DNA of 64,000 nt, taken from Escherichia coli. GTDB taxonomy: Bacteria; Pseudomonadota; Gammaproteobacteria; Enterobacterales; Enterobacteriaceae. A program made the position numbers. Positions within the stretch are counted from its first letter, which is position 1. Each line of letters opens with the position of its first letter. Shown piece by piece: positions 36,554 through 39,500 of the stretch. Where the stretch lies: the NCBI RefSeq assembly GCF_041248615.1, contig NZ_CP158426.1; one strand, 5' to 3'.

Positions 36554-39500
36554 CTATGGGTTGCACGCCTTTCCAGCGTTCGTTAAGGAAGGTGGAAAGT
36601 TGCTCGATAGATTGCGCGGACGTCGTGACGTTAAAACGTTGCAGCAGTCCGGCAGCCCGGCAGGCGCAGAGTTCGCCCTGGCAGGTACCCATCCCTACAC
36701 GGGTACGACGGCGTAAATCCAGCAGGCTGTTAACGTTTAAATTTTCTACTGCGTACTGCACTTCACCCGCAGTTACCGCTTCGCACTCACATACCAGGCT
36801 GCGGTGCAGGCGGCCTTCGCTCAGCCAGGCTGGTGTGCGATCGCCGTGCCGGTAAACTGCGGAACCGCGCAGCGGAGCGGGCAGGGAGATCACTTTGCGC
36901 AGCGTGACTTCTGCCGGTTCCTGTGAGCCAGGCAACGGCGTGTCGGCAGTGGTACAGGGGCGCGTGTTGCCCAGCTTGCGACACACCGCGTCAGTAGCCC
37001 ATTCCGCCATCAGCCGATAGGTCATCAGTTTGCCACCGGTGATGGTGATAAATCCGTCGAGACCATCGCGTTCAGCATGGTCGAGCAGCACGATGCCACG
37101 GCTGACGTTACGTCCGCTCGGGTCGTCATCGCTGGCAACCAGCGGACGCACGCCAGAATAGGCCCGCAAAATGCGTGTTTTCGCCATCACGGGGGCCAGT
37201 TTTTCCCCTTCACGCAGCAGAATATCAACTTCTTCTGCCGTCACTCGATTATCGTCAATCTCGCTGTAATCAATACGTAAAGAGGTGGTGCCAATCAGCG
37301 AAATGGTATCGCCAGGCACCAGAATATCGGCGTCGGAAGGTTTGCGGCAGCGGTTGATCACATGCTGATTAATGCGGTGATCCATAATCAGCAGCGATCC
37401 TTTCGCCGGGAACATGCGAATGCGCAGATCGGCATATTCGGCAATGTGTTGCCCCCAAATCCCGGCGGCATTAACTACGACAGGCGCATGAAGTGCCTGA
37501 ATTTCGCCGGTGAGATGGTTACGTACACGAACACCGCACACCGTCGCGCCTTCACGAATCAGCCCCGTGACTTCATGAGCGGTAAGGATAACGGCACCGT
37601 GTTCTTTGGCATCGAGCATGTTCGCTGCGGTCAGACGAAATGGATCAACGGTGCCATCCGGAACTTTCACCGCGCCAATCAGTGCCGGGTTAACGGCAGG
37701 TTCGATAATGCGCGCTTGCTGCGGGTCTATAGCTTCTGCGCTGATCCCTGCTTCTTCGCAGGCGCGAATAAAAGTGGCCTGGAAGGAGAGGTCATCTTCC
37801 GGCAGGGTGATAAACAGGCCGTTGGTCGGTTCAACGCAGTGACGTGCAATGCGTTTCAGGATCTGGTTTTCACTAATACATTCGCGGGCCGATTCCGCAT
37901 CGGTTACCGCATAGCGCGCACCGCTGTGCAGCAGGCCGTGGTTACGCCCGGTGGCACCGGTTGCGATGTCGTGGCGCTCAACCAAAATCACGCGCAGCCC
38001 GCGCAGGGCACAGTCGCGGGCAATCCCGGCTCCCGTTGCACCGCCGCCAATGATAATCACGTCACTTGATTGCGAGTCGCGAGTTTTCATTGTTATCCCT
38101 CTGAAGTTCGTTTTTTACCATTTAGCCATAGTAAAAACATGAATTGTTTGATTTCGCGCATATTCGCTCATAATTCGAAAGTGAAACGTGATTTCATGCG
38201 TCATTATGAACATTTAACCCATCGTATTTAATAATGTGTGCGGTAATTCACATTTAATTTATGAATGTTTTCTTAACATCGCGGCAACTCAAGAAACGGC
38301 ATGTTCTCCCACTGAATCAGGCTGTTAATCATAAATAAGACCACGGGCCACGGAGGCTATCAATGTTGAGTATTTTTAAACCAGCGCCACACAAAGCGCG
38401 CTTACCTGCCGCGGAGATCGATCCGACTTATCGTCGATTGCGCTGGCAAATTTTCCTGGGGATATTCTTTGGTTATGCTGCTTACTATTTGGTTCGTAAG
38501 AACTTTGCCCTCGCTATGCCTTATCTGGTCGAGCAGGGATTCTCACGCGGTGATTTAGGTTTTGCCCTTTCGGGGATCTCGATTGCTTATGGATTTTCGA
38601 AATTCATCATGGGCTCGGTGTCGGATCGCTCGAATCCGCGCGTTTTCCTGCCCGCAGGTTTGATTCTGGCGGCGGCGGTGATGCTTTTTATGGGCTTTGT
38701 GCCGTGGGCGACGTCGAGCATTGCGGTGATGTTTGTGCTGCTGTTCCTCTGCGGTTGGTTCCAGGGGATGGGATGGCCGCCGTGCGGTCGTACTATGGTG
38801 CACTGGTGGTCGCAGAAAGAACGTGGCGGCATTGTGTCAGTGTGGAACTGTGCGCACAACGTCGGTGGTGGTATTCCGCCGCTGCTGTTCCTGCTGGGGA
38901 TGGCCTGGTTCAATGACTGGCACGCGGCGCTCTATATGCCCGCTTTCTGCGCCATTCTGGTGGCATTATTCGCCTTTGCGATGATGCGCGATACCCCGCA
39001 ATCCTGTGGCCTGCCGCCGATCGAAGAGTACAAAAATGATTATCCGGACGACTATAACGAAAAAGCGGAACAGGAGCTGACTGCGAAGCAAATCTTCATG
39101 CAGTACGTGCTGCCGAACAAACTGCTGTGGTATATCGCCATCGCCAACGTGTTCGTTTATCTGCTGCGTTACGGCATCCTCGACTGGTCACCGACTTATC
39201 TGAAAGAGGTGAAACACTTCGCGCTGGATAAATCCTCCTGGGCCTACTTCTTCTATGAGTATGCGGGCATTCCGGGCACCCTGCTGTGCGGCTGGATGTC
39301 GGATAAAGTCTTCCGTGGCAACCGTGGGGCCACCGGCGTTTTCTTTATGACACTGGTGACCATCGCGACTATCGTTTACTGGATGAACCCGGCAGGTAAC
39401 CCAACCGTAGATATGATTTGTATGATTGTTATCGGCTTCCTGATCTACGGCCCTGTGATGCTGATCGGTCTGCATGCGCTGGAACTGGCACCGAAAAAAG

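Follow-up and report, generated by a model that had tools for sequence, protein, structure and literature searches.

The window analysed here is a stretch of 64,000 nucleotides from Escherichia coli, and positions 38091-38362 are exactly the intergenic region between glpA (- strand) and glpT (+ strand), 272 bp long with 37% G+C. The first gene of glpACB, glpA, occupies 36462-38090 on the - strand and was identified by its open reading frame, the NCBIfam equivalog NF008313 (1108 bits versus a cut-off of 425) and RefSeq; glpB (35213-36496) and glpC (34026-35291) belong to the same operon. The first gene of glpTQ, glpT, occupies 38363-39721 on the + strand (open reading frame; NCBIfam NF008433, 976 bits versus a cut-off of 748; RefSeq) and is followed by glpQ, which ends at 40802. 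The RefSeq annotation of glpA and glpT was taken from DNA identical to the window. A previous sequence-only reading had taken these 272 bp to be the glpACB/glpTQ divergent control region, and the open reading frames, NCBIfam equivalogs, RefSeq and the alignment with K-12 all bear this out.

The region aligns with K-12 MG1655 2352375-2352646 (window position = 2390737 minus the K-12 coordinate) with 262/272 identities (96.3%) and no indels, both sequences being 272 bp long. No difference falls in the glpA-proximal 115 bp, in either half of the CRP core, in the glpT -10 or in the Shine-Dalgarno block. Seven of the ten substitutions, at 38206 and 38216-38224, form a cluster in the stretch that separates the operator-like block from the CRP site; of the other three, one falls in the CRP spacer (T for C at 38244) and two in the glpT leader (38302 and 38309). 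T38244 raises the score with the CRP position weight matrix (PWM) by 1 bit and that with the GlpR PWM by 4. Because 38091-38205 and 38225-38301 (except 38244) are identical to K-12, features mapped there in K-12 apply unchanged. Of the 5426 complete E. coli genomes searched, 5419 contain the intergenic region, and 409 of these 5419 carry the window allele (at least 99% identity). It is a long-studied switch region, ordinary and already known, and contains nothing new: the K-12 glpTQ-glpACB control region is reportedly the subject of Larson, Cantwell & van Loo-Bhattacharya 1992 (J Biol Chem 267:6114) and of Yang, Gerhardt & Larson 1997 (Mol Microbiol 24:511). In RegulonDB 8.5, glpTQ has 21 sites, assigned to five transcription factors. 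Conservation was analysed in an alignment of 27 sequences (the window, K-12 and 25 other species); identities are given for the 23 non-Escherichia species, to which the intergenic region has a mean identity of 0.58.

A cAMP-CRP site, ATGTGTGCGGTAATTCACATTT, is located at 38234-38255 (centre 38244.5). Its core at 38237-38252 reads TGTGC GGTAAT TCACA and agrees with TGTGA-N6-TCACA at 9/10 positions; with at most one mismatch, this core pattern occurs four times in 64 kb versus 1.65 expected (~0.007 expected per 272 bp). The site is the sole 13/16 match to the CRP consensus in the 64 kb and has the best 16-position score. With a published CRP PWM it scores 12.8 bits (rank 2 in 64 kb) and is the lone intergenic match above the 99.9th percentile. 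The two halves of the core are conserved across Enterobacteriaceae (identity 0.90 and 0.89 in the 23 non-Escherichia species). In a DNase I footprint on the K-12/EHEC allele, CRP protects a single region, from -30 to -52 of glpT, which overlaps the -35 TCACAT, and footprint together with crp/cyaA mutant data show glpT activation via CRP (PMC5352689). That study (Kurabayashi et al. 2017, PMC5352689) covered CRP-cAMP and FNR(D154A); its EHEC glpT promoter has the same CRP 22-mer (38233-38254 in the window) and the same TTGAT-TTCG-CGCAT (38148-38161) as the window, and differs by one base of the CRP spacer, at 38244. Genomic SELEX and PhyloScan place glpT/glpA among CRP targets. Consensus, PWM scan, conservation and footprint therefore confirm the CRP site claimed at TGTGC-N6-TCACA, and the accompanying expectation of catabolite and GlpR control was right. 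Reviews state that GlpR and CRP together control the glpT-glpA region.

Downstream of the CRP site on the + strand lies the glpT -10 hexamer TAACAT (38274-38279), conserved as TAACAT, TACAAT or TACCAT (identity 0.80). This conserved hexamer and the -30/-52 numbering of the footprint point to A38286 (±2) as the glpT start, with a 77-nt leader. The centre of the CRP site is at -41.5 from this probable start and overlaps the -35, which is class II geometry. A generic sigma-70 scan returned only TGAACA-17-AATAAT at 38207-38235, not above shuffles, a poor result that is expected because the promoters are activator-dependent. A weak CRP/FNR-like 22-mer, AAACGTGATTTCATGCGTCATT, is present at 38184-38205, its centre (38194.5) being at -91.5 of glpT and -81.5 of glpA. 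It matches the CRP consensus at 10/16 positions (top 0.16% of positions), is conserved and falls within a published FNR-protected stretch of 70 bp (PMC5352689). A second CRP site at this place is doubtful, since its CRP PWM score is under the 99.9th percentile and the published CRP footprint shows a single protected region (PMC5352689).

Within the glpT leader, the near-invariant block GGGCCACGGAGGC (38345-38357, + strand) contains the Shine-Dalgarno sequence and has an identity of 0.90 in 23 species, compared with 0.35 for the leader outside it. An IHF-consensus match on the + strand, AATCAGGCTGTTA, with one mismatch to WATCAANNNNTTR, spans 38315-38327 (+30 to +42) and is not conserved outside Escherichia. 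It is consistent with an IHF site that Yang et al. 1997 are said to have mapped shortly after the glpT start. A search of Rfam ruled out a structured RNA in the leader: its only match at E≤1 was a 16-bit chance match inside glpA.

On the glpA side, an FNR-like site, TTGAT-TTCG-CGCAT, lies at 38148-38161, with its centre (38154.5) at -41.5 relative to the predicted glpA start and at -131.5 relative to that of glpT. It agrees with TTGAT-N4-ATCAA at 7/10 positions, the left half being perfect and the right half 2/5, and TTGAT at 38148-38152 is nearly invariant across species. FNR(D154A) protects 70 bp, 32 bp upstream of the CRP site, including this sequence (PMC5352689), and the supplementary table of Myers et al. 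2013 gives glpTQ and glpABC as FNR-activated. From its sequence and its spacing to the FNR-like site, TGgCTAAAT at 38120-38128 (- strand) is the predicted extended -10 of glpA; its identity in the 23 species (0.96) is the highest among the segments compared. It would place the glpA start at ~38113, with a 23-nt leader, 173 bp from the glpT start. An alternative spacing of 132 bp between the two starts, with that of glpA near 38154, was dropped, since the FNR site would fall on the start point and the conserved extended -10 gives ~38113.

GlpR, the glp repressor, belongs to the DeoR family and is released by glycerol-3-phosphate. Candidate operators were scored with a PWM whose training set was the glpD and glpFK operators alone (six operators), in a register set by the analyst, and against the 20-bp inverted repeat WATGTTCGWT/AWCGAACATW; the RegulonDB consensus is ATGTTCGTTATTGATCATTT. 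Data published with the Reg-Seq, promoter-architecture, FNR ChIP and Crp ChIP-exo studies gave a GlpR consensus string and the CRP PWM; site coordinates or starts for glpT/glpA were not among them. Ranks 2 and 3 of the ~64,000 window positions are both within the 272-bp region, where the maximum 20-mer score also exceeds that of shuffles (P=0.028). Paired 20-mers at or above the 99.9th percentile number four in the intergenic region versus 0.64 expected in shuffles (P=0.006). However, single half-sites at or above the 99th percentile are not enriched (14 versus 11.7 in dinucleotide shuffles, P=0.28), so that the 'several half-sites' of the sequence-only reading are, as single halves, no more than AT-rich chance; the enrichment concerns paired sites, the best of which lie elsewhere than had been proposed. 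The hexamer ATGTTC has two intergenic copies, at 38208-38213 (- strand) and 38301-38306 (+ strand), versus ~0.12 expected; the latter requires T38302, and four other E. coli alleles compared have G there.

The strongest operator-like sequence, ATTGTTTGAT/TTCGCGCATA at 38143-38162, shares bases with the FNR-like site and with the -35 region of glpA. It agrees with the consensus at 15/20 positions and scores 12.55 bits, rank 2 of ~64,000, or rank 3 when the CRP-overlapping training sites are left out. It reaches an operator-level score in 96% of the 27 aligned sequences and has an identity of 0.88 in the 23 non-Escherichia species, a conservation that could stem from FNR alone. A second candidate, GAAGTTCGTT/TTTTACCATT at 38103-38122, lies over the predicted glpA start and -10; it scores 5.4 bits in the window and 10-14 bits in Citrobacter, Enterobacter and E. 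albertii (for example, TATGTTCGTTTTTTAGCATT), with operator-level scores in 78% of the 27 sequences. Between 38153 and 38214, phased GlpR-like half-sites begin at 38153 (TTCGCGCATA), 38163 (TTCGCTCATA), 38174 (TTCGAAAGTG), 38185 (AACGTGATTT), 38195 (CATGCGTCAT) and 38205 (TATGAACATT), and their sequences suggest that they may act as operators. From 38155 to 38200 a conserved CG core is seen every 10-12 bp, for the most part in the same orientation, unlike clean 20-bp tandem palindromes. The 20-mers at 38153-38172 and 38195-38214 are both at or above the 99.9th percentile of the PWM, the latter with 13/20 matches to the consensus, rank 46 of ~64,000 and operator-level scores in 59% of the 27 sequences. 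A half-site had been claimed near 38200-38215, and ATGAACAT is indeed found at exactly 38206-38213, within TATGAACATT (an 8/10 half-site); as a half it is good, whereas the 20-mer to which it belongs is moderate and partly conserved. The earlier reading had included neither 38143-38162 nor 38103-38122, nor the overlap with the CRP site, the FNR input and the IHF-like site.

PWM matches also occur in the flanking genes. Those in the glpA coding region (37697-37716 and 37574-37593) are not conserved in other species. Those in glpT (38592-38611, 38625-38644 and 38983-39002) are confounded by an amino-acid identity of 95%, and no excess of synonymous-site conservation was seen at them. The match at 38592-38611 corresponds to +307 to +326 of glpT, and internal operators may lie near +307.

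These data bear on how GlpR might act at the glpT promoter. If operators lay at ~38200-38215 and 38260-38270, where the sequence-only reading placed half-sites, they would flank the CRP site and could repress glpT directly by occluding CRP and RNA polymerase. The upstream member has the good half-site and the rank-46 20-mer described above, and TATGAATGTT at 38260, taken as a lone half, scores at the 99.5th percentile; its place between the CRP site and the -10 would suit a repressor. However, the segment 38260-38270, which reads TATGAATGTTT, holds only AATGTT, without ATGAACAT or ATGTTC, and the half-site claimed there has no partner: its ATGTT...AACAT spacing is 5 bp versus 8 bp in the GlpR palindrome, and no 20-mer including it is in the top 0.5% of PWM scores. 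Its identity to the 23 other species (0.43) is under the intergenic mean, and at most 11% of the 27 aligned sequences have an operator-level score. We therefore regard an operator near 38260-38270, and with it the flanking layout, as improbable. It is somewhat easier to imagine, though still less than an even bet, that the CRP site itself doubles as a GlpR operator at 38235-38254, where GlpR might compete with CRP at glpT; such dual use would be compatible with the model preferred below. This sequence, TGTGTGCGGT/AATTCACATT, matches the GlpR consensus at 14/20 positions and scores 12.4 bits (rank 3), and it keeps 8.6 bits (rank 26) after removal of the CRP-overlapping training operators. The non-optimal left half of the CRP site, TGTGC followed by G, gives the GlpR 'CG' core, 15 of the aligned sequences (27 in all) have TGTGCG and 5 others have TGTGCT, and GlpR and CRP sites overlap at glpFK. 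By contrast, AATGT is common to GlpR and CRP half-sites, so that cross-scoring is expected, and the right half of 38235-38254 is without a CG core.

A more radical reading would treat all the motif matches as chance features of AT-rich intergenic DNA with no regulatory role. It accounts for the density of single half-sites, which is equal to that of shuffles, and bins elsewhere in the window hold as many low-threshold PWM matches. It is refuted for CRP and FNR, whose footprints were published on the same sequence (PMC5352689), and it conflicts with the location of the top-ranked PWM matches of the whole window in this region and with the conservation of discrete blocks in 23 non-Escherichia species while neighbouring bases vary freely. 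We consider it almost certainly wrong.

Our preferred model, to which we assign a probability of about 85%, is that 38091-38362 is a minority natural allele of the glpTQ-glpACB divergent control region, with class II promoters dependent on CRP and FNR and with GlpR acting mainly through an array on the glpA side. The sequence and the published footprints show that cAMP-CRP binds 38234-38255, as a class II activator of glpT that replaces a real -35, and that FNR occupies the conserved block around TTGAT (38148-38152). According to the model, the position of the FNR-like site at -41.5 from a glpA start at ~38113, with the extended -10 TGgCTAAAT, would make the glpACB promoter a class II FNR promoter. 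GlpR would bind mainly the phased degenerate half-sites at 38103-38214, the best operators covering the glpA start and -10 (38103-38122) and the FNR/-35 region (38143-38162), and would thus block glpACB directly. GlpR would repress glpTQ mostly from distant sites, with IHF bending at 38315-38327 and weak binding at the CRP site as possible aids. The phased direct repeats, unlike the tandem 20-bp palindromes of glpD, count against the model, as do the small training set of the GlpR PWM, the absence of single half-site enrichment and the poor right half of the FNR-like site. Nor do the PWM matches in the flanking genes point to distant partners for a loop: in glpA they lack conservation, and in glpT coding constraint confounds them.

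The architecture can be compared with those of other glp promoters. At glpFK there are four GlpR operators, O1-O4, and two CRP sites overlap O2 and O3. In glpFK, and probably also in the region studied here, several degenerate GlpR operators accompany activation by CRP, and in both the GlpR and CRP sites may overlap. However, glpFK has a single promoter and four near-contiguous operators of ~20 bp, whereas this region has two divergent promoters and half-sites that look phased at 10-12 bp, with FNR and a probable IHF input added. The glpD promoter contains the perfect palindrome TATGTTCGATAACGAACATT, followed by TATGAGCTTTAACGAAAGTG. Its halves AACGAAAGTG and TATGAGCTTT resemble TTCGAAAGTG and TATGAGCGAA (- strand) of the window, a shared half-site vocabulary, although the glpD operator is a perfect palindrome and the best operator-like sequence here matches at 15/20 positions.

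Most of the E. coli polymorphism falls in a poorly constrained patch at 38215-38233 (identity 0.36 to other genera); six of the ten substitutions relative to K-12 lie there, at 38216-38220 and 38224. We scanned for a Pho box, CTGTCATAWAWCTGTCAY, defined as two 7-bp repeats 11 bp apart. The best match in the intergenic region of the window is 10/18, and E. coli and E. albertii do not exceed 11/18. By contrast, a Pho-box-like element with 15-16/18 matches, aligned with 38216-38233, is present in 19 of the 23 non-Escherichia Enterobacteriaceae, including Citrobacter, Enterobacter, Klebsiella, Kosakonia, Lelliottia, Trabulsiella and Pluralibacter. It reads CTGTCAT-ATTT-CTGTAAC, points towards glpT and is separated from the CRP core, which lies downstream, by exactly 4 bp; no other match of at least 15/18 occurred among the ~494,000 positions scanned. 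Tentatively, and from sequence comparison, the patch might be what decay has left of a third regulatory input, a Pho-box-like element lost in Escherichia, a possibility to which we give rather less than even odds. If PhoB or some other regulator of the OmpR family binds the element, most enteric genera would have phosphate-linked control of glpT/glpA that Escherichia has lost. Such a loss would fit the textbook absence of E. coli GlpT from the Pho regulon.

The window copy is a natural allele in which the CRP, FNR and promoter elements are intact. Variants of the region can change fosfomycin susceptibility, because glpT expression governs fosfomycin uptake; relevant ones include single-base changes in the CRP spacer, the patch at 38215-38233 and an IS1 insertion in one blood isolate. 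The Pho-box-like element beside the CRP site is of interest for the same reason in Klebsiella, Enterobacter and Citrobacter, which are fosfomycin targets.

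The region is the K-12 glpTQ-glpACB control region, present here as a minority allele, and it holds nothing new. The 542-aa ORF at 36462-38090 (- strand) and the 452-aa ORF at 38363-39721 (+ strand) clear the equivalog thresholds of the NCBIfam GlpA and GlpT models, respectively, by a wide margin, and glpB, glpC and glpQ all lie at their expected positions around them. The identities of the two ORFs therefore make 38091-38362 exactly the 272-bp glpA-glpT intergenic region, as proposed in the sequence-only reading, which had called it the divergent glpACB/glpTQ control region. 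In an alignment to K-12 MG1655, whose coordinates subtracted from 2390737 give those of the window, the lengths are equal and 262 bases are identical. The segment 38091-38205 is wholly identical to K-12; of the ten differences, seven are grouped at 38206 and 38216-38224, two (38302 and 38309) fall within the glpT leader, and the CRP spacer has the remaining one (38244). A stretch of 661 bases around the control region is 100% identical to several complete E. coli genomes and was found in 5419 of 5426; 409 of these 5419 carry an allele at least 99% identical to the present one, the values being 96.3% for K-12-type and 95.2% for O157-type alleles. Intergenic polymorphism in E. coli is gathered in one short patch (38206, 38216-38220, 38224 and 38244), the remainder being almost invariant, and two haplotype families of the patch can be recognized, TTTTGTAAATCTT in K-12 and O157 and TTT(A/C)A(C/A)CCATCGT in the window and ST131.

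The CRP site claimed at 38237-38252 is correct and was already known: TGTGC-GGTAAT-TCACA is present there, and consensus, CRP matrix, conservation and published footprint agree. Allowing up to one mismatch, the core pattern was counted 4 times in 64 kb versus 1.65 expected (∼0.007 expected per 272 bp), and 38234-38255 is the sole 13/16 consensus match in the window (16 informative positions scored). Using a CRP matrix taken from Reg-Seq source data, the site scored 12.8 bits (11.8 bits for the K-12 allele), rank 2 over both strands of the window, and was the only match in the intergenic region above the 99.9th percentile. A second site at 38184-38205 is doubtful: it matched the consensus at 10/16 and fell below the matrix threshold, and a single CRP footprint has been published. 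Apart from the glpT site, the strongest matrix matches in the window were at 28344-28365 (14.3 bits) and 41791-41812 (10.9 bits), the latter between a LysR gene and an MFS gene. When 25 other Enterobacteriaceae species were aligned, their loci having been fetched by glpT coding-sequence pattern, identity to the window across the 23 non-Escherichia species was 0.90 and 0.89 for the two core halves versus an intergenic mean of 0.58. In published work (PMC5352689; Kurabayashi et al. 2017), CRP-cAMP gave a footprint over AATGTGTGCGGCAATTCACATT, which spans -30 to -52 in glpT numbering and overlaps the -35 TCACAT, and mutants in crp and cyaA showed no detectable glpT expression; the footprinted sequence is present in the window with one spacer change. 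Footprint numbering and the conserved -10 TAACAT (38274-38279) place the glpT start at ∼A38286. The CRP centre is accordingly at -41.5 and the site is of class II; CRP binds there and is needed for glpT expression.

Phylogenetic footprinting of the intergenic region revealed five constrained blocks. Block (a) (38119-38128, CATTTAGCCA, identity 0.96) reads TGGCTAAATG on the glpA strand, an extended -10. Block (b) (38143-38204) contains a near-invariant TTGTTTGAT and recurring CG cores at 38155, 38165, 38176, 38187 and 38199. Blocks (c) and (d) are the CRP cores and the glpT -10, and block (e) (38345-38357, GGGCCACGGAGGC) surrounds the glpT Shine-Dalgarno sequence, with identity 0.90 in 23 species. 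Identity in the glpT leader outside block (e) is 0.35, and this block is conserved beyond the needs of the Shine-Dalgarno sequence alone. A 70-bp stretch that includes TTGAT-TTCG-CGCAT and lies upstream of the CRP site, 32 bp away from it, is protected by FNR(D154A) (PMC5352689). The protected stretch coincides with block (b), the conserved upstream block that FNR binds. Should the extended -10 of block (a) serve as the promoter of glpA, transcription would begin near 38113. The FNR-like site, centred on 38154.5, would then lie at -41.5, the classic class II position, from which FNR would activate glpACB. The spacing between the extended -10 and the FNR-like site shows no indels across genera.

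For GlpR, the K-12 glpD promoter offers a perfect palindrome, TATGTTCGATAACGAACATT, followed by TATGAGCTTTAACGAAAGTG, the glpFK region four further operators, and the RegulonDB consensus, as quoted in a Reg-Seq supplement, is ATGTTCGTTATTGATCATTT. A matrix trained on only six operators, from glpD and glpFK, was used to rank the ∼64,000 window positions. The best GlpR-like 20-mer of the region (38143-38162, halves ATTGTTTGAT and TTCGCGCATA; 12.55 bits, rank 2) overlies the FNR-like site and the -35 region of glpA, and across the 27 aligned sequences its operator-level score is kept in 96%. Another, 38103-38122, covers the predicted glpA start and -10; it keeps such a score in 78% of the 27, its equivalents in Citrobacter, Enterobacter and E. 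albertii reaching 10-14 bits. Paired 20-mers exceeded dinucleotide shuffles of the intergenic region both in maximum score (P=0.028) and in number, four at or above the 99.9th percentile versus 0.64 expected (P=0.006). Single 10-bp half-sites were not enriched (14 versus 11.7 in shuffles, P=0.28), so that the 'several half-sites' of the sequence-only reading carry no weight by themselves. Its example at 38200-38215 held in part: ATGAACAT at 38206-38213 is the strong half (8/10) of the 20-mer 38195-38214; this 20-mer ranks 46th, and among the 27 sequences 59% retain an operator-level score. Its other example, 38260-38270, failed, being a lone half-site with none of its 20-mers in the top 0.5%, an identity of 0.43 in other species and an ATGTT...AACAT spacing of 5 bp, not 8. 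The exact hexamer ATGTTC occurs twice in the intergenic region. The copy at 38301-38306, in the glpT leader, depends on T38302, a position occupied by G in each of the four further E. coli alleles in the comparison; the motif is therefore not common to those alleles. As for distant operators, matrix matches within glpA were not conserved, and the conservation of those within glpT is confounded by protein constraint. A strong GlpR-like operator, ATGTTCGTTTTCACTCATTA (9-16 bits), occupies the glpT leader at ∼+17 to +36 in three fetched loci (L025, L086 and L008) and is weaker in L076, the carriers being Kosakonia, Enterobacter sp. Bisph1 and a soil MAG; it aligns with window 38300-38320, where E. 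coli has only a degenerate remnant, CA(T/G)GTTCTC(C/T)CACTGAATCA.

The CRP site itself, as the 20-mer 38235-38254, scored 12.44 bits (rank 3 of ∼64,000), which raises the question of whether it doubles as a GlpR operator. Its left half is TGTGC followed by G, not the optimal TGTGA, thereby supplying the GlpR CG core, and TGTGCG is retained in 15 of the 27 aligned sequences, which lends the idea some support. However, AATGT is common to both motifs and cross-scoring is expected; for this reason we regard such dual use as rather unlikely. The score falls to 8.6 bits (rank 26) once the two CRP-overlapping glpFK operators leave the training set. GlpR would most likely occupy a phased array of weak half-sites (38103-38214), from which it would occlude RNA polymerase and FNR at glpA and repress glpT mainly at a distance, in keeping with the title of Yang et al. 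1997. Repression of glpT may be assisted by an IHF-consensus match in its leader (38315-38327) and by weak binding of GlpR at the CRP site. The combination of CRP with several degenerate GlpR operators resembles glpFK, and the half-site vocabulary that of glpD.

The patch at 38215-38233, where E. coli alleles vary, aligns with a well-conserved element of other genera that, judged by its sequence, is Pho-box-like (CTGTCAT-ATTT-CTGTAAC, 15-16/18 to CTGTCATAWAWCTGTCAY), located upstream of the CRP core at a distance of 4 bp and oriented to glpT. It is present, once per species, in 19 of the 23 non-Escherichia Enterobacteriaceae (L107:3921-3938, L054:3975-3992, L114:2591-2608 on the - strand and 16 more, aligned with window 38216-38233), and all 19 matches of at least 15/18 in ∼494,000 scanned positions are this element. 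No match of at least 15/18 was found in the window, E. coli and E. albertii reaching at most 11/18. According to a review, E. coli GlpT is outside Pho control, and glpT is not among the Pho-box genes listed in a Salmonella phosphate-starvation study.

Many species' fetched loci lack a GlpA N-terminus match adjoining glpT (among them L024, L031, L034, L071, L077 and L112, from Pantoea and Erwinia; also L051, L033 and L066), so not all species have glpT and glpA in divergent orientation; in some of these loci (L005, L047 and L120) the upstream flank was too short to judge. Downstream of glpQ, 40822-43063 encodes an intact LysR-family regulator (299 aa, - strand) and, divergently, an MFS transporter (396 aa). 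NF007272, a 'hypothetical protein' model of 68 aa, matches the regulator over residues 226-291. Of 5426 E. coli genomes, only 1212 have the pair complete (at least 80% coverage), and most of the others have it in part. In E. coli strain 361, a blood isolate (NZ_CM132954.1), an IS1A (L126:2675-3549) is inserted at ∼window 38264, separating the CRP site from the glpT -10; the insertion should free glpT from CRP control, and fosfomycin uptake may be affected.
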